Assembly: GCA_036399335.1 (NCBI GenBank)
Contig: DASWNF010000014.1
Span: 209,642 to 273,641, forward strand
Length of the DNA stretch: 64,000 nucleotides
Source of the DNA: Minisyncoccota bacterium
GTDB taxonomy: Bacteria; Patescibacteriota; Minisyncoccia; Phycocordibacterales; Phycocordibacteraceae
Direction of reading: 5' to 3'
Part shown: positions 1 to 55,098 of the stretch, in pieces
Layout: each line of letters opens with the position of its first letter
Numbering within the stretch: the first letter of the stretch is position 1
Position numbers and translations under genes: made by a program
The notes under the pieces: generated by a model
Told to the model about the DNA's origin: nothing
What the model saw: only the letters and a program-made list of their open reading frames with translations
The model's database searches: none

Positions 1-192
1 CAGGTCGTGAACCGCATCACCCTCCCCGGCGCGCTCTTCCTCGGCTTCGTCGCCGTCATCCCGTTCATCATCCAGGGCATTACGGGAATCACCGCCGTCC
101 TCATCGGCGGTACGGCACTCCTCATTGCCGTCCAGGTGCTTATCGACCTCATCCGCAAGATTGAGGCGCAGATCTCACTCCGCGAATACTAA
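1..192 (+). CDS. secY: preprotein translocase SecY, C-terminal fragment (5' end outside window)
   Basis: ORF 7..192 translation ends ...GTALLIAVQVLIDLIRKIEAQISLREY, typical SecY C-terminus; followed by adk/map as in the conserved operon. Confidence 0.8.
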   Translation, partial: QVVNRITLPGALFLGFVAVIPFIIQGITGITAVLIGGTALLIAVQVLIDLIRKIEAQISLREY

Positions 193-1557: not shown

Positions 1558-2136
1558 ATGGAACGCAAAAATATCGATACTGTGCTCATCATCGGCCGCC
1601 CGGGTTCGGGAAAGGGTACGCAGGCAAGGATACTCTCGGAGAAGTTCGGCTGGGCCCGTCTCTCGACCGGCGACCGCATCAAGCAGATCCGCGACGGCCA
1701 TGAGCCGTTCTCCCCGCGCGTGCGCGAGCTGTATGACAAGGGCAAGCTCCTTCCTGACTGGTTTGCCGATTACCTCCTTGAGAGCGCGCTCCTCGACCGC
1801 GAGTCGTACGTGGGCGTCGTCCTCGAGGGCTTTGGCCGTACGAAGGGCCAGGCCGAACACTTCTGCGAGATAGTGTCGTGGCTCGGACGGAACCTCGTCG
1901 TGCTTAATCTCGAAGTTTCGGATGACGAGGTCGTGCGGCGCATGGTTGCGCGCGCGGCACAGGAGGACCGCCCGGACTCTTCCGAGGAAACCTTGCGCAC
2001 ACGCCTTGCCCAGTATGCGGAGCTGACCGCACCCGCCCTCGAATTTTTCCGCGAGCAGGGGTACGTCGTCGATATCGACGGCGAAGTCCCCCCCGAAGAA
2101 GTCGCGGAAGCCATCTCCGGCGCACTCGCGAAATGA
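1558..2136 (+). CDS. adk: adenylate kinase
   Basis: LIIGRPGSGKGTQA P-loop, LSTGD, adenylate kinase architecture; sits between secY and map. Confidence 0.85.
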   Translation: MERKNIDTVLIIGRPGSGKGTQARILSEKFGWARLSTGDRIKQIRDGHEPFSPRVRELYDKGKLLPDWFADYLLESALLDRESYVGVVLEGFGRTKGQAEHFCEIVSWLGRNLVVLNLEVSDDEVVRRMVARAAQEDRPDSSEETLRTRLAQYAELTAPALEFFREQGYVVDIDGEVPPEEVAEAISGALAK

Positions 2137-4550: not shown

Positions 4551-5938
4551 CCCTCACCTTCCACGGCGGTGCGGAGAGCGTCACCGGCTCGAACTTCCTC
4601 GTCGAAGGGAAGCACGGCAAGCTCCTCGTCGATTGTGGCGTCGAGCAGGGACGCGACTTCTGCGAAAGCTGCATGTATGACGCCTTCCCGTACGACGTCA
4701 CCTCGATAGACGCGCTTATCATCACCCACGCCCACCTCGACCACATCGGCCGCGCCCCGAAACTTATGCGCGAGGGCTTCAAGGGCCGCGTATATATGAC
4801 GGCGCCCACCCGCGACCTCATGACGCTCATCCTGCTCGATTCGGCGCACATCCTTGCCGGCGAAGCGCGCGCGCGCGGCCGCGACCCGCTGTATACCGAG
4901 CACGACGTCGAAGCCCTGCTCAACCACACCGAGGTCGTTGAGTACGGCGAGGAGTGGGAGGCGGCACCGGGTCTCTCCTGTATCCTCCGCCAAACCGGGC
5001 ACATCCTGGGGTCGGCGAGCGTGCGCATCAAGGACGAGGAAGGCACCTCGCTCGCGCTTACGGGCGACATCGGTAACGCGCCGTCGCCTTATCTTCCTGA
5101 CCCCGAGCCCGTTACCGACGCCGATGTCATGGTCATGGAAAGCGTGTACGGCGACCGCGTGAATTCCCAGGAAGGGCGCGTCGAGATGCTCCGCGATGAG
5201 CTCAATAAGGCGATAGCCCGGGGCGGCGCCGTGCTCATCCCGGCCTTTTCCATAGAGCGGTCGCAACTCATGCTGTATGAAATCTCGAACCTCATGGAAG
5301 CAGGGGAGATACCGAAAGTCCCCGTCTTCCTCGACTCGCCGCTTGCCATCAAGGTGACCGACGTATACGCCAAATGGGCCGACAAGTATTTTAAGCCCGA
5401 AGTCGACGACGAGCTGAAACGCGAGCACGATATCTTCCGTTTCCCCTTCCTTACCCAAACCCCGGCGCGCGAAGACTCCGAGGCCATCGGCGAGACGCCC
5501 AACCCGAAGATAATCCTCGCGGGTGCCGGCATGTCCCATGGGGGGCGCATCGCCCGCTGGGAAGAGCGCTACCTTCCGGATCCTGCGACGACGCTTATGA
5601 TTGTCGGCTACCAGGCCCCAGGAAGCCCGGGACGCCTTCTGGAGGACGGCGCCAGGTCCATGCGCATAAATGGCCGCGACATAGCCATACGCGCCAAAGT
5701 AGGCACCTTCAGGGGCTGGTCTGCGCACGCGGACCGCGAAGGGCTTCTTGCCTTTGCGGAGAAGTCCCTCCCGCGCACGAAAACCATTTTCTGCGCGCTC
5801 GGCGAACCGGCAAGCGCCCGGTTCCTCGCCCAGCGCATCCATGGCTTCCTCGGCATTAAGGCCATCGTGCCCACGGCAGGGGAGCGATGGGAAATTACGA
5901 AGGAGGGCGTACGGCGGGTCGGGAACGCCAAGCCATAA
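4541..5938 (+). CDS. MBL-fold metallo-hydrolase of the beta-CASP RNase family (RNase J / CPSF-like)
   Basis: HxHxDH motif (ITHAHLDHIG), beta-CASP and C-terminal RNA-specificity region; 465 aa. Confidence 0.75.
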   Translation: MALTLTFHGGAESVTGSNFLVEGKHGKLLVDCGVEQGRDFCESCMYDAFPYDVTSIDALIITHAHLDHIGRAPKLMREGFKGRVYMTAPTRDLMTLILLDSAHILAGEARARGRDPLYTEHDVEALLNHTEVVEYGEEWEAAPGLSCILRQTGHILGSASVRIKDEEGTSLALTGDIGNAPSPYLPDPEPVTDADVMVMESVYGDRVNSQEGRVEMLRDELNKAIARGGAVLIPAFSIERSQLMLYEISNLMEAGEIPKVPVFLDSPLAIKVTDVYAKWADKYFKPEVDDELKREHDIFRFPFLTQTPAREDSEAIGETPNPKIILAGAGMSHGGRIARWEERYLPDPATTLMIVGYQAPGSPGRLLEDGARSMRINGRDIAIRAKVGTFRGWSAHADREGLLAFAEKSLPRTKTIFCALGEPASARFLAQRIHGFLGIKAIVPTAGERWEITKEGVRRVGNAKP

Positions 5939-10742: not shown

Positions 10743-10837
10743 AATTGCTATAACACTAGGGCTTACGTAAAAGTTTCCTTGCGATAAGTATATATAAGAG
10801 TCAGTAAAAGAACGCTATTGAAATGTATAATTCAGGC

Positions 10838-11782
10838 ATGTCCGAAAAACGCCCCTCACTCTCCAAGATGCCTGGCCAGCGCTTCGACCCTGCAGCCAGG
10901 GAGCGGCGGAAAGAGCTTGAGGCCTTAGATCTTCCGGAAGACGAATTAGTGAAGGCGCTTATTCCCGAGAAGGTAGACCTGGAGGGAGAAGTGCGGACAG
11001 CCGAGTCTTATGCCGTTTCAAGTTTTGTCATCGAAAAGTTCTGGGACTACCTCCGGACAAGAATTACGTCGGAAGCATTAACTCTACCGGAGAACCCGAA
11101 AGGGAATACGGTAAGCCAGCGCTTTGCGTACGCCTTGAGTGATAGCCTGGACGTATATCGGGACCAATTCATCGATGACTTCCGCAACTCCCTTACCGGG
11201 AAGCAGGACGAAGAGATATCAAAGGCAGACGCCCTTACGTTCCGCTACTTCCAAATGAAGAAAGAAGAGCTGGGACACATAGGATTCCCGTCGATGAAGG
11301 ACCTCGTATCCCTTATCGGTCGGATGGGGGATGTCGTGCCGCAGGTCTATGAAAGAGATCTGGGCCGTGTGCCCACCGAGGAGGAGCTGGTCGCCTCGCT
11401 TGGGCACCCTTCGCTCAAGCGCCTGTTTATGGAAATGATGACAAATAGCCGGAGTGCCGTTCAGGTGACCCTAAACCGGCTGGAAGATGGATTCTCTAAT
11501 CTGGATGACTATACCGGTACCTTTAACCCAAAATACTTTGAGGTACGCGAGTCGAACGGGCAGCCGCACGTCGCGCTTCGCCCTGAAGTCGTGGAGTGGA
11601 TTCGCAGCATGTGGGTGAAGGGAGCTGAAGCATTAGCTGAAAGGGGAATGGCTTTCCCAAGGGCCCTCCAATGCCCGGTCCTCTTTACAGGGAAGTTTAT
11701 AGAAATGCACGACTGGGTTGTCGGAGAGTTTAAGAAATTCAACCAGTTAGAGAAAAGCGGAGGCTTGGGAGCAACAGAATAG
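10838..11782 (+). CDS. hypothetical protein (lower-GC segment)
   Basis: long ORF; TATAAT + 6 nt + ATG at 10838 (MSEKRP) suggests leaderless start; no recognisable motifs. Confidence 0.5.
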   Translation: MSEKRPSLSKMPGQRFDPAARERRKELEALDLPEDELVKALIPEKVDLEGEVRTAESYAVSSFVIEKFWDYLRTRITSEALTLPENPKGNTVSQRFAYALSDSLDVYRDQFIDDFRNSLTGKQDEEISKADALTFRYFQMKKEELGHIGFPSMKDLVSLIGRMGDVVPQVYERDLGRVPTEEELVASLGHPSLKRLFMEMMTNSRSAVQVTLNRLEDGFSNLDDYTGTFNPKYFEVRESNGQPHVALRPEVVEWIRSMWVKGAEALAERGMAFPRALQCPVLFTGKFIEMHDWVVGEFKKFNQLEKSGGLGATE

Positions 11783-11811
11783 AGGCCTTACGGCTTGCTA
11801 CACTACTTTTA

Positions 11812-12849
11812 ATGAAAGAGTCTCCGTCAATGCGGCACACTCTCTACCCAGAGGAGAGAGGGGAACCCATCGCACAAACCTTGAAGCAGCTGCGAGACCA
11901 TTCCTACAACCTGGATGCTCACGCCGCCCGTGAGGGCGAATCGGTAAAGACCGAGATATACGCGCTCACGGCCTATATCCTTGAGCAGGTCCACCCTGAG
12001 GCGGTAAGACATCTATATGAGCGAGAGGGTGAGGTAGCGGCCTATGACAACCTCCGGTTCCCTTACGCGGAGGGAGCCACGCTTTCGACGTCTAAAGAGT
12101 ATGCGGCCCTAAGCCCGAGCGAATTGTTCAGCAGGATCCCAAACATCGAGGACGCATACCCGAGGGCTTTTAATCAAGCGCTTAAGCGCTGGCTAGCGGA
12201 GGAAGAGACGGATGGCTATGCCACGCATGCCTGGAGGAGGCTCAGCGAGTTAACGGGACAAGTTCACCCCGGCTCATTCGAGGAAGTCTCAAGAGGCGCA
12301 GCGGAATTCGTTACCCGAGGAGTCCATACGGCTGGGAAGGTCAGCTGGAATATCATGCGCGCCATCCCGATTGCCTACGAAGCAAGATTTAGCCGGGTAA
12401 TTACGCCGGACGAGTTCAGGGATCTAGCTAAGGAAGCGGAGACGCTAGTCATCATGCTCGCCTCAATGCATATATCCAGTTTCTCTAATACGTATGACTT
12501 TATAAGAAGCCGCGCGTCGTCTATAAGCCGGCATCGGCAGTTGGAGTACCCTCTAGAATTATTCAAGCTAGAAGTTAAGGACGGGGAGCCCACTATTGCC
12601 TTTGACGAGTTGACCGTTGCGGCATATGAGGAGTACAGGCAAAAGAAACAGGTTAAGCACGTCCGCGAAAACGAATCTCGCCTAGGATGTCCGGCACGGG
12701 ACGCGCGAGTCCAAGGAGCTACCGGAAGCCCGGAAAGCGTTGTCGCCTCGGTGCACCGTGCGTACCTGGATCTCGCGGGCAAGTATCTGGTCCCGAACCT
12801 TAAGAAGTACACGGAAGGAGCTGCACTGCATGCTGCTCGGGACTGGTAG
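11812..12849 (+). CDS. hypothetical protein (lower-GC segment)
   Basis: 345-aa ORF directly downstream of previous; no recognisable motifs. Confidence 0.5.
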   Translation: MKESPSMRHTLYPEERGEPIAQTLKQLRDHSYNLDAHAAREGESVKTEIYALTAYILEQVHPEAVRHLYEREGEVAAYDNLRFPYAEGATLSTSKEYAALSPSELFSRIPNIEDAYPRAFNQALKRWLAEEETDGYATHAWRRLSELTGQVHPGSFEEVSRGAAEFVTRGVHTAGKVSWNIMRAIPIAYEARFSRVITPDEFRDLAKEAETLVIMLASMHISSFSNTYDFIRSRASSISRHRQLEYPLELFKLEVKDGEPTIAFDELTVAAYEEYRQKKQVKHVRENESRLGCPARDARVQGATGSPESVVASVHRAYLDLAGKYLVPNLKKYTEGAALHAARDW

Positions 12850-13089
12850 GAGAAGAAGACCGCTTACGCGGTTTCTTCTATTGATGGGAGGTCCGTGAGA
12901 GGAGGGACTCACATGGGAAGTTCCAGAGTTCTTTGGGTACAAGAAGCGGGGTATCGAAACACTGTCCGATAAGTTCATCTAAAATACATATAAACTTAAG
13001 TAACTTAATCAAGTTCTATCAGTATCTATGGTACTGCCCATGAACAGTTGCTCTGTAGAGAGCGCGTATCAATTTAAGCTCACTATTAC

Positions 13090-14964: not shown

Positions 14965-15621
14965 ATGAACGCTCTCATTTTCAACTGCACACTGAAGAAG
15001 TCGCCGACGGTATCAAACACGCAAGCTCTCATAGATAAAGTCGTGCGCGAATTCGACTCGCTTGGCGTTTCCTCCGAAGTCGTACGCATCGCTGACTACC
15101 ATATCGCTCCCGGAACGAGCTCCGACGAAGGTAACGGCGACCAGTGGCCGCAGCTTTTACCCAAAGTCCGCGCCTGCGACATCTTCATAATTGCTACGCC
15201 CATTTGGGTCGGCTTCACCGGTTCACTCGCGCAACGCGTCATCGAGCGCCTCGATGACGTCTTCCACAATGAGGAACACCAGGACCCCAAGACGGGCCAG
15301 ACGTTCTTTTATGGAAAGGTGGGTGGCACGATCGTAACCGGGAACGAAGATGGCGCGCATGGAGTCGTGGCGCGTGTAAACTGGGCGCTGAACGAATTCG
15401 GTTGCACCATCCCTCCCTCAGCCAATACGTACTGGGTGGGGAAGGCAGGCCCGGGCCCTAGTTATCTTGATGACGATGGGACCAGCTATCTCTATACAAA
15501 TAAGACCCTACGGCACATGGCGCATAACCTTGCCTACATGGCCGGGGTCCTGAAGGCGCATCCAATATCTACGAATCTGAATGCGCTTACCGAGGAAGCG
15601 AAGAAGGAAAGTCGGGAGTAG
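14965..15621 (+). CDS. flavodoxin-like fold NAD(P)H-dependent FMN reductase family protein
   Basis: MNALIFNCTLKKSP...DIFIIATPIWVGFTGSLAQRVIERLD... flavodoxin-like/NADPH-FMN reductase pattern. Confidence 0.6.
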   Translation: MNALIFNCTLKKSPTVSNTQALIDKVVREFDSLGVSSEVVRIADYHIAPGTSSDEGNGDQWPQLLPKVRACDIFIIATPIWVGFTGSLAQRVIERLDDVFHNEEHQDPKTGQTFFYGKVGGTIVTGNEDGAHGVVARVNWALNEFGCTIPPSANTYWVGKAGPGPSYLDDDGTSYLYTNKTLRHMAHNLAYMAGVLKAHPISTNLNALTEEAKKESRE

Positions 15622-15876
15622 CAAAATAGAAAACCACCCGAAGGCGGTTCTCTAATGTCCATATGTCTCCATATAGTTCTATATCGGTGGACACCCTGTC
15701 GGAAATTTGGAACCAGCTCGAAAGCTATGTTTTGCGCTCGTACGAACTGATACGCAACGCAGGGATGCTAGCTATTCCCAAGGAAAGTGCGGCGTAAGGG
15801 GTCACATGTTGGTAATAGAACCTACTAATATATCTAACAAAAGCCCCAGACAGAGTCCGGGGCCAAGGTAGTTTGT

Positions 15877-15920
15877 TTCTGTTGCCAAGCGGTCTACCAT
15901 CCGCTCCGAATCTTATTCAA
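15877..15920. repeat. 44-nt direct repeat copy 1 (ttctgttgccaagcgg-loop-ccgctccgaaNcttattca)
   Basis: near-identical to 16217..16260 except central loop and 2 flanking nt; contains short GCGG/CCGC hairpin. Confidence 0.8.
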
Positions 15921-15933
15921 ACGGTCCTACCGC

Positions 15934-16086
15934 TTAGCGCTTGGGGCGCTGCGCGGGCGGACGGGGCTGGGAAACCCCGGCCGAACCGGTATTGGCTCCG
16001 GCCATGCTCTCACCTCCTTTCTGATCGATTGAGGGACGGGGATTGGAGACCCCCGCAGAACCAACATTCACTCCTGACACGTACAT
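15934..16086 (-). CDS. small Gly/Ser/Pro-rich peptide, internally tandem-duplicated (candidate precursor peptide)
   Basis: minus-strand ORF MYVSGVNVGSAGVSNPRPSIDQKGGESMAGANTGSAGVSQPRPPAQRPKR (50 aa; below the 60-aa ORF-track cutoff). Two Shine-Dalgarno GGAGGTG boxes: one spaced 8 nt before an in-frame GTG three codons into the ORF (ATG 16084 itself has only a 2-nt spacer), one 6 nt before the internal ATG at 16005. Halves align at nucleotide level with differences concentrated at 3rd codon positions of this frame. Confidence 0.5.
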   Translation of the reverse strand: MYVSGVNVGSAGVSNPRPSIDQKGGESMAGANTGSAGVSQPRPPAQRPKR

Positions 16087-16216
16087 CACCTCCTCTCTCG
16101 TCAGACGGTTAAAGAACTAATCTCGATGAGACCTCGACGAATCAAGGGCTCAATAGAGGGGAGAAGTGGTGCTTCTCCCAGTAGTTTTATTTCCACCTCC
16201 TTTCGGATTGGGAAAC

Positions 16217-16260
16217 TTCTGTTGCCAAGCGGGATTGCACCCGCTCCGAAGCTTATTCAG
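16217..16260. repeat. 44-nt direct repeat copy 2
   Basis: see copy 1; lies between rSAM stop (16277) and peptide ORF. Confidence 0.8.
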
Positions 16261-16276
16261 CTCCGCTCCTCCTCGG

Positions 16277-17437
16277 TTACCCGAGGAATCGCTGCACAGT
16301 AGCCAACTCAGCGCTGAATGACTCCTTTCCGATTGCTCTCCACCACTTCTCAGCGGTTTCTGCGAATACGGTTGGGACGTCCAGTTCCTCGGACACTCGC
16401 GCGATGCTGAAGTGGGAAAGGTCGTTGCCTTTCGCATCCGTACCCCGCTGGAGGTCTTCCAGCGAATGTTGGATGCAGAAGGGAACCCTCCACCAACCGT
16501 CAGCATCAACAACGAGCGTCTCGTTGACCTGCAGAGATTTCGGATAGAAGTACAGCGGGATGCCCACATCGAGTACGATGGCGTTATATTCGACCATCGC
16601 GTTCGACAGAGCCTTCCGTGCCGTCTCCTTACCGAGAATCTGTAGCAGGACAACGAAGTCTGCGAGGGAGTACGTCCGGAGAAATACCGGACGCTCCCAC
16701 GTGGACCCAAGAAGCTGTTCCAGCGCCTTCGTTAGCTCCCGCTCATCCGCGCGCATGTGCTCGAGTCCAGGCCTCAACGACATAGTCGTCAGATGCCATT
16801 CATCGACCAGGGGAGCGAGCATTTCGCCCGTCTCCCGCACATCGTCGCAGTTGAGCGAGCTGAGCGTATAAAGCGACGTCACCTTCCCGGTTGGGCTTAC
16901 AAGCCGCCGAGCGTTGGTGAGTCCCTTCATCGCCCACGCGTAAGCCTGCTGGCTCGCGCGCTGTGCATTGTGGGTGCGTTCCGTCCCGTCCACCGATACG
17001 TCGAGCGTATCGATTTCAAGGCCTTCCCGCTCACAGAGCGACAGCATCGCCGGGGTCACGTATTGGCCGTTGTTAATGACCGATACGCTGTATCCGGCGC
17101 GCTTGATCGCTGCGAGGACCGGCACCTGATGCGGGAGCAGTTGCCTGCCCTCATGCACCAGGTGACCAGATCCTGTGAGCTGCTCGAGCACGGAGATCAG
17201 AACCTCCGCGCTGAGCCGTTCGGAGTATCCTTTCGGACCCTCGAACGGGAAGATGCAGTGCTCGCACTGCACGGCGCAACCACCACGTACGATCCACGAG
17301 AGAAGGGGAGGGATCTCCGAACGCAGCTGCGCCCGGATATGGTCTCCGAGATCTTCGCTGTGGACGACGGCGTGGAGCCAGGAGTCGATCGCCGTCCCAT
17401 TGGACGCCGACTCACTCGGGGTGGGGTCTTGGGTCAT
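16277..17437 (-). CDS. radical SAM domain protein
   Basis: CxxxCxxC cluster GGCAVQCEHC near N-terminus (aa ~53-60); 386 aa; no clear SPASM Cys cluster seen. Confidence 0.55.
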   Translation of the reverse strand: MTQDPTPSESASNGTAIDSWLHAVVHSEDLGDHIRAQLRSEIPPLLSWIVRGGCAVQCEHCIFPFEGPKGYSERLSAEVLISVLEQLTGSGHLVHEGRQLLPHQVPVLAAIKRAGYSVSVINNGQYVTPAMLSLCEREGLEIDTLDVSVDGTERTHNAQRASQQAYAWAMKGLTNARRLVSPTGKVTSLYTLSSLNCDDVRETGEMLAPLVDEWHLTTMSLRPGLEHMRADERELTKALEQLLGSTWERPVFLRTYSLADFVVLLQILGKETARKALSNAMVEYNAIVLDVGIPLYFYPKSLQVNETLVVDADGWWRVPFCIQHSLEDLQRGTDAKGNDLSHFSIARVSEELDVPTVFAETAEKWWRAIGKESFSAELATVQRFLG

Positions 17438-17649
17438 GGCGCATCTCCTGCTTGGCGTGATTGCCAGTCAACGTTCAAAACTCTGGTGTGATTCTGCGTT
17501 GAATCCAGGCTATAGTCAAGACAACTGACTCAAAAATGCAGGCATAAATAGCGCAATATGTCCTGTATATAGAAGCTATTATAAATACTAGTTACGATTA
17601 GTCGTCAGAAATATTGACACTAAATCAAAAATAGAATACGCTTTAAAAT

Positions 17650-18384
17650 ATGAATATCTCAGAGGCGCTATCGATCCTGGGCCTAAATGAGAAGCAGACG
17701 GCTGTTTACTTGGCCCTCCTTCAGCTCGGAAAGGGCAGTGCTTACTCGATCGCAGATAAAAGTGGGCTGAAGCGCCCGACCACTTACGTCATTCTTGGCG
17801 AGCTGGTCGATAAGGGTCTTGTCGAACGCGTCCCTAGAGCGCGTAAGCAGCTGTACCGCGCTATCTCTCCAGAACAGGCCTTTGGCGTGGCAGAGGAGAG
17901 GCTTTCGTTAGCTAAAGAGAAGCTACCTGAACTGCTCGCTATGACTAAGGGAGCAGAAACAAAGGTGAGCGCCATTTACTTCGAAGGGCAGAAGGGGTTA
18001 AAGCAGCTCATGGAGTACAAGCGTGACGAAGACAAAGGGAAAGAAGTTCGGGCTTTTTACGCTACTGCCGCGGGCCTGCCCCAGGAACTTGAAGACTACT
18101 TCAGCGAATACAACGAGAAGCTAAGGAAGCGAGGTGTCACAATGCGAGCGATAGTCCCAGATCACCCCTCCCTCGAGCCACATCGTGCTCTCGACGAACA
18201 TTTGAAACGCGATGTTAAGAAGGTGCCATATGATCAGTACTCCTCTGAGATTGCTATCGATATATCGGACCGCGTCGTGCGCATTCAGGACTATAAAAAC
18301 CTCCAGGGTATTGCCATAGAGAATGCCGACGTAGCTAAGACCATGCGGGAGATATTCGAGATGTTGTGGAGTAGGGTAGATTGA
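17650..18384 (+). CDS. TrmB-family HTH transcriptional regulator
   Basis: N-terminal LGLNEKQTAVYLALLQLGKGSAYSIADKSGLKRPTTYVILGELVDKGLVERV matches TrmB HTH; 244 aa. Confidence 0.7.
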   Translation: MNISEALSILGLNEKQTAVYLALLQLGKGSAYSIADKSGLKRPTTYVILGELVDKGLVERVPRARKQLYRAISPEQAFGVAEERLSLAKEKLPELLAMTKGAETKVSAIYFEGQKGLKQLMEYKRDEDKGKEVRAFYATAAGLPQELEDYFSEYNEKLRKRGVTMRAIVPDHPSLEPHRALDEHLKRDVKKVPYDQYSSEIAIDISDRVVRIQDYKNLQGIAIENADVAKTMREIFEMLWSRVD

Positions 18385-18408
18385 GCGGCCTGAAGATGAA
18401 GTAAGATA

Positions 18409-19485
18409 ATGAAAGCAAACATGCCAAGAATCAAAAGACCAAACGAACTCCATGCAGTTGATTTCTTCTGCTCTGGCGGAGGTATGACCTGCGGCCTTCG
18501 ACAGGCGGGGATCGAGGTCATTGCTGGGATAGATAATGATCCCCAGTGTAAGGAAACATACGAGAAGAATAATCCAGGCACTCAGTTTATTCTCGCCGAT
18601 GTGTTCGATCTAAAAGAGAAAGAACTCTCCAAGCAGCTGAATCTGAAGCGCAATGACGATAATCTAATACTCATTGGATGCAGCCCCTGCCAATTCTGGT
18701 CCATAATTCAAACAAGCAAAAAGAAGGCCGAGAAATCAAAGAATCTCCTCGTTGAGTTCAAGAGATTCGTGGACTACCTGAACCCAGGTTACGTCCTTGT
18801 AGAGAACGTGCCAGGGATTCTAGCCAGGAAAGACGAAAGCGGACTTGCTGCCTTTATTGAGGACCTCGAACGTAAGGGATATAGCGTTCACTACGAAGTA
18901 GTGAACATGAGTGAACATGGGGTTCCCCAGATGCGAAAACGCTTCTCCCTTATCGCAAGCCGGTTACATAAGGAACCACTCAAGCTCTCAAAAGAAGCTT
19001 CTTACTTCCCGTTGGTAAAAGATGTGATTGGAAAGGAGAAGGGCTTCAAGTCCATTCCTGCTGGATATCATGACAAGACCGACACACAACATTCAACAGC
19101 GAATCTTACGCAGAAGAATCTCGAACGACTGGAGAAAACTAAAAAAAATGGAGGATCATGGCTAGATTGGGCAGAGGACCCTAAACTTAAGCGGAAGTCA
19201 TACAAGGGTAAGGAATTTAAAGATAACTACGGGCGCATGCGTTGGGACAAGCCTGCGCCGACAATTACTACTAAGTTCGCAAGCATCTCAAATGGACGTT
19301 TCGCTCACCCAGAAGAAAACCGAGGCATTTCGCTCCGGGAGGGAGCAACTCTTCAGACGTTCCCGGCCGATTATGTATTTCATACTGAGAGCTTTGGCGT
19401 TGCTGCGCGCATCATAGGTAACGCGGTACCCCCAGCGTTTGCAAAGAAATTGGGCAAGCGTATTGTGAACGCACACAAAACCTAG
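18409..19485 (+). CDS. DNA (cytosine-5)-methyltransferase
   Basis: motif I FCSGGGMTCG, motif IV GCSPCQFWS (PC), motif VI ENV, motif VIII QMRKRF, motif X GNAVPP all in canonical order. Confidence 0.9.
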   Translation: MKANMPRIKRPNELHAVDFFCSGGGMTCGLRQAGIEVIAGIDNDPQCKETYEKNNPGTQFILADVFDLKEKELSKQLNLKRNDDNLILIGCSPCQFWSIIQTSKKKAEKSKNLLVEFKRFVDYLNPGYVLVENVPGILARKDESGLAAFIEDLERKGYSVHYEVVNMSEHGVPQMRKRFSLIASRLHKEPLKLSKEASYFPLVKDVIGKEKGFKSIPAGYHDKTDTQHSTANLTQKNLERLEKTKKNGGSWLDWAEDPKLKRKSYKGKEFKDNYGRMRWDKPAPTITTKFASISNGRFAHPEENRGISLREGATLQTFPADYVFHTESFGVAARIIGNAVPPAFAKKLGKRIVNAHKT

Positions 19486-21138
19486 ATGGCAAATCAACCT
19501 CTTGAAATGACGTTCGACCCGGCCACCATCGATCATCTCGGTGTCCGGATGTATTCTACGTTGCCTCCTGTGTTGGCTGAGCTAATTGCAAACTCGTATG
19601 ACGCGGATGCCCATAAGGTCGAGATAGGCCTTTTTGATGGCGATGAGACCAAGACTATTGTTGTCCACGACAACGGTCATGGGATGTCATTCAGCGACAT
19701 CAATGAAAAATTCTTGCGGATTGGACGTAATCGCCGTGACGAAGAAGACCAGAGAGAGACGCCAGAAGGAAGGAAGGTAATTGGTAAAAAAGGTCTTGGC
19801 AAACTCTCCTTCTTCGGCATTGCTAACGAAATTGAAATCGCTACCAGGAAAGAAGGGAAAGAAAACGTCTTTATCATGCGATGGGATGATATCAGGGATG
19901 CAAAGGCCGTATACAGTCCAGAAACCGTATTAGTAGATCGCGAATGCGACCCCGAGAGCAAGGGAACAACTATAACCCTAAGAGGGTTGAGAAGAAGTAC
20001 AGATTTTGACCCCCAGGCACTTGCAATATCACTATCGAAAATCTTCATCGTAGACGATGATTTTGAGATTCAAATAAGTCACAATGGCGAGACACCAGTT
20101 GAGGTGGAGAATGATAAAAAATACGACGACCTCGATAAAGAAGTTGAGTGGGACGTGCCAGATGAAGTAACCTTCGAATCTGACTACGAGAAAGCTGCAG
20201 AAATTAATGGCCACCTTATCGCTGCAGGGAAGCCGATTTCGCCCCGGACTAACATGCGGGGCGTGACGTTATTCTCCCGGAAGAAGTTGGTAAATCTTCC
20301 AGAATATTTCTCGGAAAGCACTTCGAGTCACTTCTTCTCGTATCTCACCGGTTGGCTTGAGGTCGATTTTATCGACGAGCTGGATGAAGATGTTATCTCG
20401 ACAGACCGACAGTCGCTAAACTGGGGCCATCCAGAAATGGAGAAACTAAGAGATCATTTGAGGAAGATGATGAACTGGCTCGAACAGGATTGGCGTCGCA
20501 AAAGGGAGGCCGTTAGAAAGAAGAAGATAGAGGAGCAGACGGGAATCAATACGGAAGACTGGTTCAGCAAGCTCCCTGAGGGAGTCCGCGCAAGCGCAGA
20601 GGCTGTGGTTAAGGCGATCGTGAAAGATTCTGAGCTTCCAGAAGAAGTAAGCACACGCGCCGTTAGAGACTTTCATTCTCTTGTTCCTGAATATCCCAGA
20701 TATCACTGGCGTCAGCTTCATCCAGAAATCCAAGATGCTTCCCGTGAGTACTACGAGCAAGGCGACTACTACCACGCGTTCATTGAAGCGGCTAAACGAT
20801 ACGTGAATGCTGTTCGATCCAAGGCAGTCCGAACAACACGTGACGAGCGCGCACTCATGCAAGAAGTATTTCCTGCTGCAAATCCGATGCTTTCTGTAAC
20901 AGAAGGGTATACCAAACCAGACGGAACAGACTTCACCGCAGATACTCTGACAAACATCCGTATAGCTCACCAGATGTTTTCCGAAGCAGTCATTTGCGGA
21001 GGGAGGCATCCTATATCTCACGAAGAGATTGCAGACCTGAGAGACTCCAGACTCTTTACTGAGGACGACTGTCTCGATGTACTAAGCCTCCTGTCGCACC
21101 TATTCTGGAGACTCGAGCATTCCACAAAATTGAGATAA
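19486..21138 (+). CDS. GHKL/MORC-type ATPase (HATPase_c_3-like) fused to C-terminal Ymh/TIGR02391-like putative HEPN domain
   Basis: Bergerat N-box ELIANSYDADA, G1 box VHDNGHGM, G2 GKKGLGKLS; C-terminal LHPEI...YYHAFIEAAKRYVNAVRSKA...GGRHPISHE with Rx4H HEPN-like motif; start codon overlaps MTase stop. Confidence 0.65.
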   Translation: MANQPLEMTFDPATIDHLGVRMYSTLPPVLAELIANSYDADAHKVEIGLFDGDETKTIVVHDNGHGMSFSDINEKFLRIGRNRRDEEDQRETPEGRKVIGKKGLGKLSFFGIANEIEIATRKEGKENVFIMRWDDIRDAKAVYSPETVLVDRECDPESKGTTITLRGLRRSTDFDPQALAISLSKIFIVDDDFEIQISHNGETPVEVENDKKYDDLDKEVEWDVPDEVTFESDYEKAAEINGHLIAAGKPISPRTNMRGVTLFSRKKLVNLPEYFSESTSSHFFSYLTGWLEVDFIDELDEDVISTDRQSLNWGHPEMEKLRDHLRKMMNWLEQDWRRKREAVRKKKIEEQTGINTEDWFSKLPEGVRASAEAVVKAIVKDSELPEEVSTRAVRDFHSLVPEYPRYHWRQLHPEIQDASREYYEQGDYYHAFIEAAKRYVNAVRSKAVRTTRDERALMQEVFPAANPMLSVTEGYTKPDGTDFTADTLTNIRIAHQMFSEAVICGGRHPISHEEIADLRDSRLFTEDDCLDVLSLLSHLFWRLEHSTKLR

Positions 21139-21363
21139 AATCATCAAGGTCGCGATGCGACTAAAACGCCTAAACCAAGGAGCGATCCGAGGCATGGCCA
21201 AATAAAAACCTACGCGAGCAGAAGCGGCCTCATAGGCTGGCTCTACTCGCGTAGGTCGGTGTCCCGAAAGGGCCTGGGTGATGTCCGAAAGGGTGTCATC
21301 GCCAGTTCTGTGGGGCCGCTTCTGTATCCAGACGGCCTCCTTACCAAAACCTACGCGAACCAT

Positions 21364-22014
21364 ATGAATCAGCCACATCGAGGGTTTACCGCCCTCACAA
21401 TCGCCATACTCCTCGGAATTCTGGTATTGCTGGGAGGAGTGGCAGCCACGATCGCGCTTAAGGCAGAAAAAACCGCCGTTGTGCCACTTACTGAGGCAAC
21501 CAGCACCGTTGCCGCACAAATCGCCCCTGAAGAGAACGTTGAGGCTCGTGTGGGCATCTTTCAAGCACCTGAAGTGACATCGCCAGCCGTAATTACACCG
21601 GCAGCGCCAGGAGTAGATCTAAAAGCAAGCTGTGTGACACAGGAAGCTCGCCTTTATCAGAAGCTTTTGTCCGAACTGCCCAAGCCCTCAGTAGCCACAC
21701 TCGATCGGCAGCGCAGCGCGCTTCTAAAGGCTCTGTATCCAGACTCAATGCCAGCAACAACGGAAGCAGAGCGCGCATCGCTCACGAGCGAACAGAGGCA
21801 AGCAGTAGCGTCGAAAGATTCAGATGCGATCACGACTGAGATCGATGAAGTGGCATACAGTCGGGAGAAGCTGGAACAGCAGGTCAATAACATCGACCGC
21901 CTATTTGACCCCTACAGCACACGCCTTAGGTGCGGTCAGGTGACCACAGAGGAACAGATTGCTCACGAACTGAAGCGCCTGGCCGACGAGATAGAAAGGC
22001 TGAATAAGTTTTAG
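21364..22014 (+). CDS. hypothetical membrane-anchored protein
   Basis: single TM (LTIAILLGILVLLGGVAATIAL) then Ala/Thr/Pro-rich and coiled-coil C-terminus. Confidence 0.45.
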   Translation: MNQPHRGFTALTIAILLGILVLLGGVAATIALKAEKTAVVPLTEATSTVAAQIAPEENVEARVGIFQAPEVTSPAVITPAAPGVDLKASCVTQEARLYQKLLSELPKPSVATLDRQRSALLKALYPDSMPATTEAERASLTSEQRQAVASKDSDAITTEIDEVAYSREKLEQQVNNIDRLFDPYSTRLRCGQVTTEEQIAHELKRLADEIERLNKF

Positions 22015-22535
22015 TCTGCGTGCACAAAAGTCGGAGGATCCTAGAAAGTCCGACAGGGGAAAACTATTTTTGCGAACCTAGTAAATAGGCCATGAAAAGC
22101 ACACTTTAGAATAGTTTTCCCCCTTAAATCGGGTTTTCTGGAAAAGGAGTTTTGTGCACCTTTGCGCCCTGTCTGTAGCCTCGATATAATGGTCGAGGAA
22201 ACAACAAAATAATCGAAAGTAATCGATATCTGAAAGCTGATTGGTCCGTAAGGACTGACGCCGATCTGCGTAAAGTAACCCCAAGCCCGTTCGTCTTAGT
22301 TTCTGGGGGGCCGCTTCTACAGCAAGGGTTCTCCAGCTTACCCACTTGCTGGTATCGATTAGTCGTACTGCGCCTTTGGCAGTAAGGCTGAGTGTGAAGC
22401 CTCAGGATTGATCGCGACTGCATATGCAGCCGTGCTTAATCCCGAGGCTTTTCGCGTTTCTGTCAGCCGGTATTTGCCCCTCTTCTGTTGGGTATGGTCA
22501 ACCGGCTGACCTTATCCAACAGAAGGAGGACAAAC

Positions 22536-22721
22536 ATGTTAACGGTTGAAGAATGTAAGAGGCTTATAGGAGCACCAAGCATGCCTGACGGCGAAGTTAA
22601 GCGAATCAGAGAGCTGTTGTACGCCTTTGTGGAAAGAACGCTGGACTATGTAGATGAAACCGGCATGTTTGTCTCTGAAAAGCCGGTATGTCAAACAAAC
22701 ACAATGAACACAGTAAAGTAA
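22536..22721 (+). CDS. small protein upstream of and overlapping recombinase (possible accessory/RDF-like, speculative)
   Basis: strong SD gaaggagg 7 nt before ATG 22536; 61 aa; overlaps recombinase start by 34 nt. Confidence 0.35.
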   Translation: MLTVEECKRLIGAPSMPDGEVKRIRELLYAFVERTLDYVDETGMFVSEKPVCQTNTMNTVK

Positions 22722-24340
22722 TAGCCTTAATCTATTGCAGGGTCTCATCTGAGCGCCAAGCAAAGGAAGGGCACGGACTAGATAGCCAGGAACACAGATG
22801 CCGGGCGTATGCTGATACGAAGGATTATCACGTTGAGGAAGTATTCAGAGACAGCGCAAGCGGAGGAGGGGACTTTATGAACCGTCCCGCAATGCAAGAA
22901 ATGCTGCATTACATCGATAAGCATCCGCACAAAAACTACACGGTTATCTTCGACGATCTGAAGAGGTTTGCTCGAGACACTGTGTTTCACCTCAAGCTGC
23001 GTGCTGCGCTACAGATGCGCAACGTGAAGCCGGAATGTCTAAACTACGTGTTCGACGATTCCCCGGAGGGAACCTTCGTAGAAACGATATTCGCGGCACA
23101 AGGTCAACTAGAGCGTGAACAAAATAGGCGACAGGTAATTCAAAAGCAGAAGGCGCGACTTGAGCAGGGTTACTGGCCTTTCTATCCGCCGCCAGGTTAC
23201 CAGCAAGTCAGAGAGGTTGCTCATGGAAAAGTCCTAAGGATTATTGAACCTGAGGCGAGTCTCATTCGAGAAGCGTTTGAGGGATTTGCATCTGATCGGT
23301 TCATGACTCAAGCTGATGTGGCTCGTTTTCTACAAGACTCTAATTACAACAAGGGTCGCCCAGTGTACGTAGAAGGCGTAAGACGACTCCTTAGAAGGGT
23401 AGTGTATGCCGGATACGTAGAGCGAGAGGAGTGGGAGGTCTCCAGGCGACCAGGTCAGCATAAGGGACTAGTCAGTATTGAAGTATTCCAGAAGGTGCAG
23501 GAGAAACTCGACGGTAAATGTAAAGTTCGATCGCGACTAAGCGACCGAATGGACTTCGCGTTACGAGGCCTGTTGCTCTGTGATTACTGCAACAAAACTC
23601 TCACAGGCAGCTGGAGTAGAGGTAGGAACAAAATGTATCGTTACTACCGCTGCAAGACGTCAACGTGTGTTCGCTTCAATAAGAGTGTTAATGGCGACTT
23701 CGTTGATAGAGAATTCAAGACCCTATTACGGTCAGCCGTACCACGTATTGAGTTGCTTGAGCTGGCAAAAAGAGTACTGATAGACCTCTGGGGCAAAAGA
23801 GTGAAGCTGTTGGATCAACGCAGAATAGAAGTAGAAAGGAAAATTGAGGAGTCGTCTCGACAGGTCGATCTTCTGACAACACGAATCACGAGAACAATGG
23901 ACGAGTCGCTTATATACGTCTATGAGCGTCAAATATTGAAGGCTAGAGACGATAGCATCGCCCTACAAGGGCAACTTAAAACGATTGGTCTGTCAGCGGC
24001 TCATATTGAAACCGCCCTCGAGGTGGTTACAAGTTATCTAAAAGATCCAGTAAGTACATGGGAAAATGGAGACTTAAAAGCAAAAAGACTAGTCTTCGGA
24101 CTAGTCTTTGCTGATAAGTTGGTCTTCCACCATAAAGATGGGTTTGAAACCGCACAAAAGCCGCTTATTACGGGGCTATTTGAGCAAATCTCTACCAAAG
24201 AATCACAGGATGTGGAGGTGGGGAGAGTTGAACTCCCGTCCAGCCTGGCTTTGAGAGCGATTCTACGACGCGTAGTCGGCATTGAAGATTCGGCAGGGGC
24301 ATCGGAATGCCGACGAAAACGTCCTTGCCTAGGTCCTTAA
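22688..24340 (+). CDS. large serine recombinase (phage-integrase type)
   Basis: N-terminal resolvase catalytic domain ALIYCRVSSERQ (catalytic Ser), recombinase domain, zinc-ribbon CDYC...YYRC, coiled coil; C-terminal ~128 nt overlap tmRNA 3' end on opposite strand. Confidence 0.85.
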   Translation: MSNKHNEHSKVIALIYCRVSSERQAKEGHGLDSQEHRCRAYADTKDYHVEEVFRDSASGGGDFMNRPAMQEMLHYIDKHPHKNYTVIFDDLKRFARDTVFHLKLRAALQMRNVKPECLNYVFDDSPEGTFVETIFAAQGQLEREQNRRQVIQKQKARLEQGYWPFYPPPGYQQVREVAHGKVLRIIEPEASLIREAFEGFASDRFMTQADVARFLQDSNYNKGRPVYVEGVRRLLRRVVYAGYVEREEWEVSRRPGQHKGLVSIEVFQKVQEKLDGKCKVRSRLSDRMDFALRGLLLCDYCNKTLTGSWSRGRNKMYRYYRCKTSTCVRFNKSVNGDFVDREFKTLLRSAVPRIELLELAKRVLIDLWGKRVKLLDQRRIEVERKIEESSRQVDLLTTRITRTMDESLIYVYERQILKARDDSIALQGQLKTIGLSAAHIETALEVVTSYLKDPVSTWENGDLKAKRLVFGLVFADKLVFHHKDGFETAQKPLITGLFEQISTKESQDVEVGRVELPSSLALRAILRRVVGIEDSAGASECRRKRPCLGP

Positions 24341-24639
24341 TTTAAGCGCGCTGCCCGGACATGCAGGCGCCGATCCCGTAGGAGATTCCGCCCTGACCTT
24401 CCGCTACGGGAACCGGGAAGGGGAGGACGTCGCTAAGCGAAGCGAGCTAAAAGCTCAAGCTTACGCGCTCGCGAACGCAAAGTTGAAACTGTTCTTCGAG
24501 AAATACGGAGAAACAGTGTTCTTTGCGCTTGCAACAGTGTTGTTTGCAAGTATTTGTAGTTGCGGGATTTAGATGGACAGCAACCTTCCATCGCGTCGCA
24601 CGTATCTCAAAGTACAGACCGTCAAAGCCGGTCACCCCC
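24213..24639 (-). ncRNA. ssrA: tmRNA (ssrA)
   Basis: 5' GGGGGUGACCGGCUUUGACGG (cf. E. coli GGGGCUGAUUCUGGAUUCGACGG); 3' GGACGGGAGUUCAACUCUCCC-CACCUCC-A (cf. E. coli GGACGCGGGUUCAACUCCCGC-CAGCUCC-ACCA); 7-bp acceptor with G3:U70; internal tag ORF GCA AAC AAC ... GCG UAA = ANNTVASAKNTVSPYFSKNSFNFAFASA; adjacent to smpB. Confidence 0.8.
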
Positions 24640-24677
24640 GGGCTCGATTAGTAACAGGAGCACTAATCGAGCCCGGG
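24637..24677. other. 16-bp perfect inverted repeat (cccgggctcgattagt / actaatcgagcccggg) between smpB stop and tmRNA 5' end
   Basis: seen directly; stem 3' arm overlaps first 3 nt of tmRNA. Confidence 0.8.
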
Positions 24678-24693
24678 ACCGATCGACCTGCTA

Positions 24694-25140
24694 TCAGGTA
24701 CGACGTTTCATTGCGCGATCCATGTCTCGTTTCGCGTCCTTAAGCTTCAAGTCTTCCCGTTTGTCGGACTTGTTCTTACCGCTCACGATGGCCACGCGCA
24801 CCTTCACATATCTCCCACTATTATACACTTCAAGTGGCACTACTGTCAATCCTTTGCGCTCTTCCGCTTCGGCTAAATCCGCTATCTCGGTCTTGTTTAA
24901 AAGGAGGCGGCGGTTCCGTTCCGGGTTATACCCGGCAGGAGTATTCCCTTGCTGGTACGGGGGAATGGACATGCCAATGAGAAAGGCCTCGCCCCCGCGT
25001 ACGACGACGCGCGAACCGTCCAGTTTCCCTTGTTTTGCGCGCACGGCCTTTACTTCGGCCCCGGATAGCTCGATGCCCGCCTGGAGCGTCGAAAGTACGG
25101 AGTAGCGGAGGCGCGCTTTCTTGTGTTCGATGAGCGTCAT
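24694..25140 (-). CDS. smpB: SsrA-binding protein SmpB
   Basis: GIELSGAEVKAV...GKLDGSRVVVRGGEAFLIGMSIPPY...RNRRLLLNK canonical SmpB. Confidence 0.9.
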   Translation of the reverse strand: MTLIEHKKARLRYSVLSTLQAGIELSGAEVKAVRAKQGKLDGSRVVVRGGEAFLIGMSIPPYQQGNTPAGYNPERNRRLLLNKTEIADLAEAEERKGLTVVPLEVYNSGRYVKVRVAIVSGKNKSDKREDLKLKDAKRDMDRAMKRRT

Positions 25141-27836: not shown

Positions 27837-27912
27837 CCACCCTTAGCTCAGTTGGTTAGAGCTCCGAGCTTATACCTCGGCGGTCCTTGGTTCGAGTCCA
27901 AGAGGGTGGACC
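27837..27912 (+). tRNA. tRNA-Ile (anticodon UAU)
   Basis: cloverleaf folded by hand: acceptor CCACCCU/AGGGUGG, D-arm GCUC-AGUUGGUUA-GAGC, anticodon stem CCGAG/CUCGG with loop CUUAUAC (U33, UAU, A37), T-arm CUUGG-UUCGAGU-CCAAG. Confidence 0.7.
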
Positions 27913-53589: not shown

Positions 53590-53662
53590 AGCGGGGTAGA
53601 GGAGAGGTACCTCGGGAGGCTCATAACCTCCAGACGCCGGTTCGATTCCGGCCCCCGCAACA
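53590..53662 (+). tRNA. tRNA with CAU anticodon (Met / initiator / Ile2 unresolved)
   Basis: hand fold: acceptor AGCGGGG/CCCCGCA with 1:72 A-A mismatch, D GAGG-AGAGGUA-CCUC, anticodon GGAGG-CUCAUAA-CCUCC, T GCCGG-UUCGAUU-CCGGC. Confidence 0.55.
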
Positions 53663-53757
53663 AGGTAGTGCGGCCTGCACCAAAGACCGATACGGATGAA
53701 ATGCACAGAAGCCGCTTACTAGCGCCTTCTGTGCCATGTAAAAGCTATACTAGGCGC

Positions 53758-54096
53758 ATGACGTTGGATTCATTCTTTGCGACATATGACTCACTCACTT
53801 CTATAAATATCATGGAAGAGATAGGGGTTCGCCAGTCAATACAGAACATTGCCTTCCATGTAATTTTTCTTGTCTTGTGGTCAGGGATAGCGCTGCTGCT
53901 TGTTGACGCTTACAGGACCGGAAAGGTCAAAAGAATGCGACATGTATATCAGGGTCACTCGAAAGAGTATTGGGCGAACCCTTACTGGGATAAAAAGCAG
54001 AATCCGGTTTCGTTCGGGGTTTCGGTCGCGGGGTACATTGTTATTCTTATCCTCTTTACGCTTATTATCTTCCTTCCCCTACTTCAAGCGCTATAG
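53758..54096 (+). CDS. small membrane protein
   Basis: 2 TM; lower GC; start uncertain. Confidence 0.35.
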   Translation: MTLDSFFATYDSLTSINIMEEIGVRQSIQNIAFHVIFLVLWSGIALLLVDAYRTGKVKRMRHVYQGHSKEYWANPYWDKKQNPVSFGVSVAGYIVILILFTLIIFLPLLQAL

Positions 54097-54236
54097 GGTT
54101 CAAGACCGACACGAGCAACACGATTCGGAGACATACCAGCAGGTGTAAACATGGTTCCGTTCCGCCAAGGGTTACAAGTACAACAGGCGCTGAAGGCGTC
54201 TTTTGTGCTGGTCAGGTCAAGCTATACTGTAGTTGA

Positions 54237-54953: not shown

Positions 54954-55098
54954 GAACCAGTGCCTTTCCGCCTGGCCTATTCCCCTCACAAAAATCGCGA
55001 AAGTGGCTTAGATCTACTCAAAGCCCGAGGGAATAAGAAAGCGCTCCCAAAGAACCCTTAGAACCTCTCGATTCCCGGGTACAAGCTATACTTTCTCT

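Follow-up and report, generated by a model that had tools for sequence, protein, structure and literature searches.

We analysed a 64,000-nt stretch of contig DASWNF010000014.1 (assembly GCA_036399335.1, positions 209,642 to 273,641) from a Minisyncoccota bacterium. We will call this whole stretch the window. Positions 15687..24216 of the window are very probably one integrated copy of a small integrative element, and the element family is driven by a particular clade of large serine integrases. The integrated element has a unit length of 8,525 bp, is bounded by a 5-bp core (GTGGA), and abuts the 3' end of the gene for transfer-messenger RNA (tmRNA, encoded by ssrA). The attachment site of the element (attP) lies inside the open reading frame (ORF) of the integrase, 36 codons before the stop codon, so integration partitions the integrase gene. 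The original prediction, which was made from the sequence of the window, proposed a serine-recombinase element at the 3' end of ssrA. Empty sites in related genomes and a reconstructed host attachment site (attB) support that proposal. The prediction missed the location of attP within the integrase ORF, the splitting of the gene upon integration, and the family-wide design.

Boundaries of the element

In its integrated state, the ORF of the large serine recombinase encodes 550 amino acids. Over its last 129 nt (24212..24340), the ORF is complementary to the acceptor and T-arm of the tmRNA and to adjoining sequence, close to the overlap of about 128 nt that was originally noticed. ARAGORN and Rfam both confirm that ssrA is at this location (RF00023 matches 24210..24639 on the minus strand, over the full model, 1-374, with 110 bits versus a gathering score of 47). 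As was also predicted, the tmRNA adjoins smpB, and the FtsH gene comes after smpB. The relatives of this smpB place the host in the Patescibacteria (Paceibacterota/Parcubacteria).

At the right junction (attR), the core on the tmRNA strand is UCCAC: the last three bases of the acceptor stem, the discriminator A, and C74. Because the core covers only the UCCAC at the 3' end of the tmRNA, the mature tmRNA is unaltered by integration. At the left junction (attL), the flanks on both sides are informative. The native trailer and terminator of the tmRNA occupy, in reverse complement, the 60 nt directly to the left, with a terminator-like hairpin at 15654..15627 on the minus strand, and directly to the right are the last 36 codons of the integrase. 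The window around attL reads …tatatcg GTG GAC ACC CTG TCG GAA ATT TGG AAC CAG….

To describe empty sites we used related loci, which we refer to by L numbers. Seven related loci from Patescibacteria have smpB followed by a tmRNA gene without any recombinase, and the tmRNA genes at these empty sites end with …CCACCTCCAC. In L001, L002, and L006, a conserved trailer (CGATATAGAACTATATGGA…) and then a terminator come after the end of the tmRNA. If 15560..15691 of the window is joined to 24217..24300, the result is collinear with the empty sites of these three loci (tmRNA end, trailer, and terminator), and the reconstructed attB aligns with them through CGATATAGAACTATATGGA…AACCGCC…GG. The attB junction reads …AGTTCTATATCGGTGGAGGTGGGGAGAGTTGAAC…, and the attP junction of the free form reads …GAATCACAGGATGTGGACACCCTGTCGGAAATTTGG….

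GTGGA is the only sequence that is common to the two junctions. Neither generic searches for direct or inverted repeats nor a BLAST comparison of the window to the 3' end of the tmRNA revealed an attachment-site repeat, because the core is just 5 bp. Choosing junctions by the longest shared k-mer gave spurious cores, and we replaced this approach by anchoring on the conserved V codon. We also considered placing the left end near 17487, where there is a GG or TGTG core and a palindrome or inverted repeat (GAATCACA…TGTGATTC). We dropped this junction because its attP would fall about 9 bp short of the attP of L090, the closest relative; a hidden Markov model (HMM) of the integrase tail, together with the match to the trailer, gave 15687 instead.

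The original prediction left the left end unclear, with candidates at 17.4 kb or in a low-G+C block at 10.75-13.05 kb; the trailer and the detached tail place it at neither. The predicted drop in G+C over 17.4-24.3 kb is real (0.47-0.54 over 17.5-24.5 kb, versus about 0.58-0.62 in the flanks), and the left 1.8 kb of the island has host-like G+C. The step in G+C at about 17.5 kb would fit a different model, in which the crossover is far inside the 129-nt overlap, the island starts at about 17.4 kb, and the tmRNA receives a new 3' end from the element, as happens with classical islands that have tyrosine integrases. Direct repeats of the tRNA or tmRNA end (13-21 nt) that lie further out in L090, L094, L095, and L165 would also fit. 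But the window has no second copy of the tmRNA 3' end, even if three mismatches are allowed, and the trailer, the terminator, and the integrase tail are all at 15.63-15.80 kb, away from 17.4 kb. The deep-crossover model is also contradicted by the reconstruction of attB, and the junctions share GTGGA alone. We consider this model to be very improbable. The idea that the crossover is inside the overlap was correct, but it lies in the first 5 nt. Therefore, with the crossover at GTGGA, practically all of the tmRNA is host DNA, and no 3' fragment of the tmRNA comes from the element.

The longer direct repeats in L090, L094, L095, and L165 lie outside of the junction between GTGGAC and the tail, at distances of about 40 nt (L165) to about 220 nt (L090, with copies at 4876..4890 and 11516..11530). 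This suggests that they are scars left at this site by a previous integration or by a tandem one. Also, in the attL flanks of L086 (about 2070..2125), L121 (about 30..95), L104, L094, L102, and L138, the native trailer of the tRNA or tmRNA is a long palindrome: an inverted copy of the RNA's 3' end (…CATCTCCAC) is located past the terminator hairpin, which could allow the trailer to pair with the 3' strand of the acceptor. A weaker version of this is present at 15640..15691 of the window.

We predict that a pair of integrase dimers exchanges attP and attB with the 2-bp staggered cut that is usual for serine integrases, and that attB has the acceptor and T-arm of the tmRNA as one side and the trailer as its other side. 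In the 23 attP sites that we reconstructed, dyad symmetry peaks with G3G4 of the core as the central dinucleotide (a mean of 7.8 matched positions of 22, versus about 5 elsewhere). In the window, the attP dyad is roughly centred on the GG of the core (ACAGGATGT-GG-ACACCCTGT).

Integration splits the integrase gene

The last 36 codons of the integrase (VDTLSEIWNQLESY…) are at the far end of the island. We identified them with the tail HMM, which was built from eight homologs that do not overlap a tRNA gene and from the tail sequence at the left end of L090. This HMM matches 15630..15794 of the window (E = 4e-12), and in about 30 related loci it also has plus-strand matches that lie upstream of the integrase. 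Both junctions read the GTG of the core in one and the same frame, so the circular form encodes a protein of 544 amino acids, with …ISTKESQD-VDTLSEIWNQ…AA before the stop codon. This free-form integrase ends in a conserved helix (…SQD-VDTLSEIWNQLESYVLRSYELIRNA…). Upon integration, codon 508 is fused to antisense tmRNA (VEVGRVELPSS…), and about 41 antisense-encoded residues replace the tail. In the integrated ORF, codons 1-508 are element DNA, codons 509-510 lie across the core, and residues 511-550 come from antisense tmRNA.

The same arrangement is found in the relatives. Among 23 distinct related loci with both ends present, the junction is in frame in all 23, and the reconstructed proteins have 527-553 amino acids. 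The cores at the tRNA or tmRNA ends of these loci are GTGGA, GTGGAC, TGTCC, or GTGA. Furthermore, about eight homologs from the databases have another conserved C-terminus, …VEM/VDM-x-x-K-S-W-N-Q-I-E-x-Y-I…. On their contigs, there is no tRNA or tmRNA gene beside the integrase, and other element genes follow it. One of these contigs is L084, of 12,376 bp, which encodes a full-length integrase (51% identity) with a GTG GAC core. L084 has a terminal overlap of 55 nt, which is consistent with a circular molecule; it contains no tRNA or tmRNA gene, and it also encodes Prim-Pol/AAA_25 and ParB proteins.

The detached tail is under purifying selection at the protein level. Between the window and L090, there are 10 synonymous codon changes and just 1 non-synonymous change over 26 codons. 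A W and an N are invariant across 25 tails that we recovered from related loci, where the integrases have 42-65% identity to that of the window.

Alternatively, the tail at attL might be kept only as DNA that forms the P' half of attP, or it might be a small gene of its own, and the location of attP within the ORF might be a by-product of the linkage of the integrase and attP. Directly after the core, the window, L090, and L086 share the same 15 nt, and TGG AAC, which encodes the W and the N, is about 20 bp from the core, where a contact with the zinc ribbon could lie. The tail helix is modelled at moderate confidence, and L094 and L165 give short or unrelated tails if their long outer repeats are taken as the junction. 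All of these would fit a DNA-only tail. However, the conservation extends over about 26 codons (78 nt), which is well past a half-site, with mostly synonymous changes; the frame is kept in every locus that has both ends; and the fused full-length form is found in the eight database proteins and in the apparently circular contig. We think it rather unlikely that the tail is only DNA or a separate gene, and we favor a tail that is part of the free-form protein.

Excision would rebuild the integrase gene, and only the excised circle would make the full-length protein. Thus, the tail swap probably damps or redirects the activity of the recombinase once it is integrated. The swap would then be a built-in latch, analogous to the archaeal "suicidal" integrases of the SSV type. 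We hold the functional meaning of the swap tentatively, somewhere between doubtful and evenly balanced. A more specific version, which is possible but doubtful, is that the swap of the helix is a self-contained directionality switch: only the 544-residue enzyme from the circle would be proficient in integration, and the integrated form would be silent or biased towards excision.

Relatives of the integrase target the ends of tmRNA and tRNA genes

The integrase has over 2,000 relatives in the databases. Nearly all of the best 120 relatives end with …SQDVE[MV]xG[IV]EPx[CS]… or …VDPTGLEPATPSLQMRCST…, and these two endings are antisense translations of the acceptor and T-arm of a tmRNA or tRNA. 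We used a profile search to collect 80 homologous loci from metagenomes. According to ARAGORN, the integrase ORF converges on and overlaps the 3' end of a tmRNA or tRNA in 43 of the 80, and Rfam adds five tmRNA loci, which brings the total to at least 48 of 80 (26 with tmRNA and 22 with tRNA). Most of the other loci are cut by the ends of contigs. The targeted tRNAs are those for Ala, Ile, Leu, Tyr, Glu, Thr, Phe, and Arg. Because the same geometry recurs across hosts with different targets, the convergent overlap is not due to chance.

Viral contigs yielded little. A search with a single sequence gave no match to viral contigs, and a profile search of them gave three distant relatives and no more.

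The integrase protein

The window's enzyme is a bona fide large serine integrase. Besides the Resolvase domain (PF00239; E = 7e-23, residues 13-162), it contains Recombinase (PF07508) and Zn_ribbon_recom (PF13408), each above the curated cutoff. Across 35 homologs, Y16, R18, and S20 are invariant, as are C298, C301, and C322; C327 is nearly so.

For structural analysis, we used a natural free-form homolog (P0075) instead of the protein from the window. Its AlphaFold model has a mean pLDDT (the predicted local distance difference test) of 85.9, and its fold matches complexes of the Bxb1, PhiC31, and LI integrases (Foldseek, E of about 4e-19). The zinc-ribbon insertion is modelled with coiled-coil helices at 345-393 and 397-425. 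The residues encoded by the core are modelled as a low-confidence linker (491-502), and then there is a helix of 28 residues with pLDDT of 54-71.

A probable terminator within the integrase gene

Within the integrase gene, in the codons for AKRLVFGLVFA, there is a terminator-like hairpin on the tmRNA strand. It has 11 bp, is followed by TTTTTGCTTTT, and starts about 100 nt downstream of the 3' end of the tmRNA. The same hairpin is found at the same offset in eight loci, and a second type, at about +53 nt, is found in five more. Overall, 14 of 44 loci have a terminator-like site, versus 12 of 220 control windows from deeper in the antisense strand of the integrase. We propose that this antisense hairpin and its U-tract probably terminate transcription of the tmRNA, in place of the displaced native terminator. 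More speculatively, read-through antisense to the integrase mRNA may damp the expression of the integrase.

Accessory genes and neighboring features

The coordinates of the element's features and of the adjacent host genes are in Table 1. A small ORF of 61 amino acids overlaps the start of the integrase gene, and tblastn shows that it is conserved in this directly upstream location in at least 12 related loci. It has no match in Pfam or NCBIfam. We consider it the best candidate for a directionality factor, or else for a regulator. Just upstream of this ORF, at 22473..22534 and 22397..22450, are two long imperfect palindromes (31-nt and 29-nt arms, respectively), which could be operator or terminator elements of the integration module.

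The element contains a LOOT RNA, and 13 of the 22 related loci that we scanned have one as well (L086, L088, L089, L090, L095, L097, L102, L104, L105, L107, L113, L116, and L117; 52-94 bits). In all 12 of these loci whose boundaries are mapped, LOOT is within the island; in L088, it is known just as upstream of the integrase gene. LOOT occurs in either orientation relative to the integrase, and it is often just upstream of a gene for a protein with an N-terminal hydrophobic segment. LOOT may be a leader or regulator that belongs to the element family. In the window, the ORF downstream of LOOT probably starts further in, at MNQPHRGF…, and it has no family match in the Pfam or NCBIfam scans.

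The other cargo includes a cytosine methyltransferase and, directly after it, a protein with GHKL-ATPase and Ymh domains. The GHKL/Ymh protein is the probable restriction partner of the methylase, and the two would form a putative type II restriction-modification pair. It is similar to NF050001 (E = 2.5e-73), at 247.7 bits versus a cutoff of 550. At the left end of the island, small ORFs come after the gene for a radical SAM enzyme, and two of their coding units are repeats of one another (…GSAGVS[NQ]PRP…). The small ORFs are possible precursor peptides, and together with the radical SAM gene they look like a peptide-maturase cassette. The original prediction also held that the island's genes use Shine-Dalgarno sites unlike those of the host; we did not find such a difference, with a motif of this type at 1 of 6 island ORFs and 6 of 53 others, in what was a crude and weak count that took the first start of each ORF.

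Table 1. Features of the element and its flanks, with positions in the window.
Feature	Position	Strand	Evidence
Native tmRNA 3' trailer and intrinsic terminator, moved 8.5 kb off the tmRNA by the insertion	15627..15686	-	match to empty sites
attL core GTGGA, left element junction	15687..15691	+	flanking tail and trailer; core position compared across related loci
Detached 3' end of the integrase gene, VDTLSEIWNQLESYVLRSYELIRNAGMLAIPKESAA and stop	15687..15797	+	tail HMM, translation, free-form reconstruction
Small ORFs downstream of the radical SAM gene	15934..16196	-	three repeated ribosome-binding sites of the AAGGAGGTG type
Radical SAM enzyme, host-like G+C	16277..17437	-	PF04055; weak matches to peptide-maturase and SPASM families
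TrmB-type helix-turn-helix regulator, cargo	17650..18384	+	PF01978, E = 1.9e-17
C-5 cytosine DNA methyltransferase (Dcm), cargo	18409..19485	+	PF00145, E = 1.6e-59; TIGR00675, 139.9 versus a cutoff of 100.65
GHKL-ATPase and Ymh protein, BbrUII/HgiDII-like	19486..21138	+	PF13589, PF09509
LOOT RNA (RF03000)	21167..21300	+	Rfam, 51 bits versus gathering score 46.4, model 1-121
ORF downstream of LOOT	21259..22014	+	one N-terminal hydrophobic segment if it starts at MNQPHRGF…
Small conserved ORF, 61 amino acids, MLTVEECKRLIG…IRELLYAFVERTLDY…	22536..22721	+	tblastn
Large serine recombinase ORF, integrated state	22688..24340	+	Pfam domains, translation
Terminator-like hairpin and U-tract in integrase codons	24084..24109	- (tmRNA strand)	sequence, conserved offset
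attR core GTGGA, right junction of element and tmRNA	24212..24216	+	same core position in 23 related loci
tmRNA (ssrA), intact, host target gene	24212..24639	-	ARAGORN; tag peptide ANNTVASAKNTVSPYFSKNSFNFAFASA
smpB, directly upstream of the tmRNA	24694..25140	-	PF01668, E = 8e-44

Two other blocks of low G+C, at 10.8-12.9 kb and 53.6-55 kb, are outside of the element. The block at 10800..12900 contains two ORFs (10823..11782 and 11812..12849), with no match in Pfam and no integrase or tail motif. The other block (53590..55500) begins with a tRNA-Met gene (53590..53661, plus strand), directly after which the G+C falls to 0.45-0.47. Its ORFs have no family match, and no recombinase or tail motif was found in it. 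This block may be what is left of a further insertion at a tRNA gene. Near FtsH and smpB, there is also a tRNA-Ile with the unusual anticodon TAT (27837..27912, plus strand); a tRNA-Ile with this anticodon is also within the smpB-centred loci of related Patescibacteria (L002, L003, and L005-L010).

The state of this copy

Several observations weigh against parts of our interpretation. First, the occupied site is 100% identical in three assemblies from different samples, and an exact search for the attP junction did not find it in viral contigs. Second, given the host-like G+C of the island's left 1.8 kb, the radical SAM cassette could be a later acquisition. Third, the dyad signal that places the central dinucleotide is modest, and adjacent offsets score almost equally well. 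Fourth, the hairpin within the integrase gene has just a few compensatory changes, and it overlaps a conserved peptide motif. Finally, our account of the tail's function is a proposal. The first five or so codons of the tail are under a further constraint, as they form the P' arm of attP, which means that some of the tail's conservation acts at the DNA level, and the tail helix, besides its low pLDDT, has no confident docking on the rest of the protein.

The identical sites would fit with the island being a fixed and immobile remnant, whose recombinase ORF reads into the tmRNA by chance and has no current role in mobility. Also, the Pfam and NCBIfam scans found no replication or transfer genes in this copy. 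On the other hand, this copy has an intact integrase ORF, an intact tail, both intact arms of the attachment sites, and an intact small ORF upstream, and its arms agree with the arms in relatives. A chance overlap is also at odds with the recurrence of this geometry at different tRNA and tmRNA targets, and fixation in this host would not change the nature of the element. We consider it rather unlikely that the island is an immobile remnant. Excision of this copy is putative; a relative (L084) occurs as an apparently circular contig.

Comparison to known systems

The integrase resembles the large serine integrases of phages (Bxb1, PhiC31, A118/LI, and TP901-1) in its domain order: a catalytic resolvase domain with a serine nucleophile, then a recombinase domain, and then a zinc ribbon into which a long coiled coil is inserted. 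Its att sites are also short, with very little identity between attP and attB and a non-palindromic central dinucleotide. The best structural matches are 9dxh and 9iu2 (Bxb1), 9tep (PhiC31), and 4kis (LI), with about 15-17% identity in the alignments, and the best sequence match among solved structures is the catalytic domain of TP901-1. As far as we know, attP lies outside of the integrase ORF in the known phage serine integrases. In contrast, in the window's family, attP is inside the ORF, integration alters the C-terminus, and there is an extra C-terminal linker and helix.

A similar layout is known from the SSV-type "suicidal" tyrosine integrases of archaeal viruses and plasmids, in which attP is in the integrase gene, the target is of the tRNA type, and only the free form of the gene is complete (PMC8371274). 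That review describes these integrases as exclusively archaeal. As in SSV1, the window's element has attP within the integrase gene, a tRNA-type target, and a gene that is partitioned by integration. But this is a serine recombinase from Patescibacteria, so the element works similarly while lying outside of that family. Also, unlike in the SSV1 type, just the last 36 residues are split off, no catalytic or DNA-binding domain is separated from the others, and the reading frame runs on into antisense tmRNA.

Elements with tyrosine integrases that insert at ssrA carry a 3' fragment of the tmRNA and leave long direct repeats. The window's element shares just 5 bp with its target, the whole tmRNA remains host DNA, and a probable terminator is supplied instead. 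It is otherwise similar to the tyrosine-integrase islands and prophages at ssrA (Williams 2002; Islander/TIGER; SopE-phi): they use the same end of the same gene, the integrase abuts the junction, the function of the target is preserved, and defense genes are carried as cargo.

Prochlorococcus tycheposons are also small cargo islands that adjoin tRNA or tmRNA genes, and in 27 of 937 a large serine recombinase takes the place of a tyrosine recombinase (bioRxiv 10.1101/2020.12.28.424599). Some homologs of the window's integrase are from marine samples, such as L146, which is from a TARA scaffold. The parts of that report that we consulted do not mention a split integrase gene or an attP within an ORF.

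In mycobacteriophage BPs, work by Broussard et al. from 2013 reportedly found an integration-dependent immunity, with attP in a coding sequence, so that integration changes the C-terminus of a protein and thereby its activity or stability. The window's element likewise has attP inside a coding sequence and a C-terminus that changes with integration. In BPs, it is a repressor that is affected, and the integrase is of the tyrosine type, whereas here the gene for the serine integrase is itself affected.

There are some earlier reports of serine recombinases at tRNA or tmRNA genes. For one Paracoccus phage, which has a serine recombinase, a tRNA-Met gene was the predicted target. In a survey from 2020, 14 of 297 islands with serine integrases were at tRNA or tmRNA sites, and the authors called for proof (PMC7192596). 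In the searchable literature, which does not include paywalled papers, we found no description of the split-gene layout for serine integrases.

Implications

The targeting of tRNA and tmRNA genes has so far been treated as a trait of tyrosine integrases. Here, a large clade of serine integrases, mostly from uncultivated Patescibacteria, appears to be dedicated to such sites. Serine integrases are preferred in genome engineering, and integrases whose attB is at the conserved end of a tmRNA or tRNA would find landing sites in many bacteria without engineering the host. Also, the orphan LOOT RNA gains a genomic home.

The attP within the integrase gene is a counterpart, in a bacterial serine recombinase, of the archaeal "suicidal" integrases, and it suggests a new way to control directionality. 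If this is correct, then a whole clade of bacterial serine integrases uses a gene-splitting logic that was previously ascribed to archaeal tyrosine integrases alone. These integrases would apply it at the nearly universal 3' ends of tmRNA and tRNA genes, with a built-in terminator that protects the expression of the tmRNA. For the genome-reduced bacteria of the Candidate Phyla Radiation, the island shows how small defense islands move.

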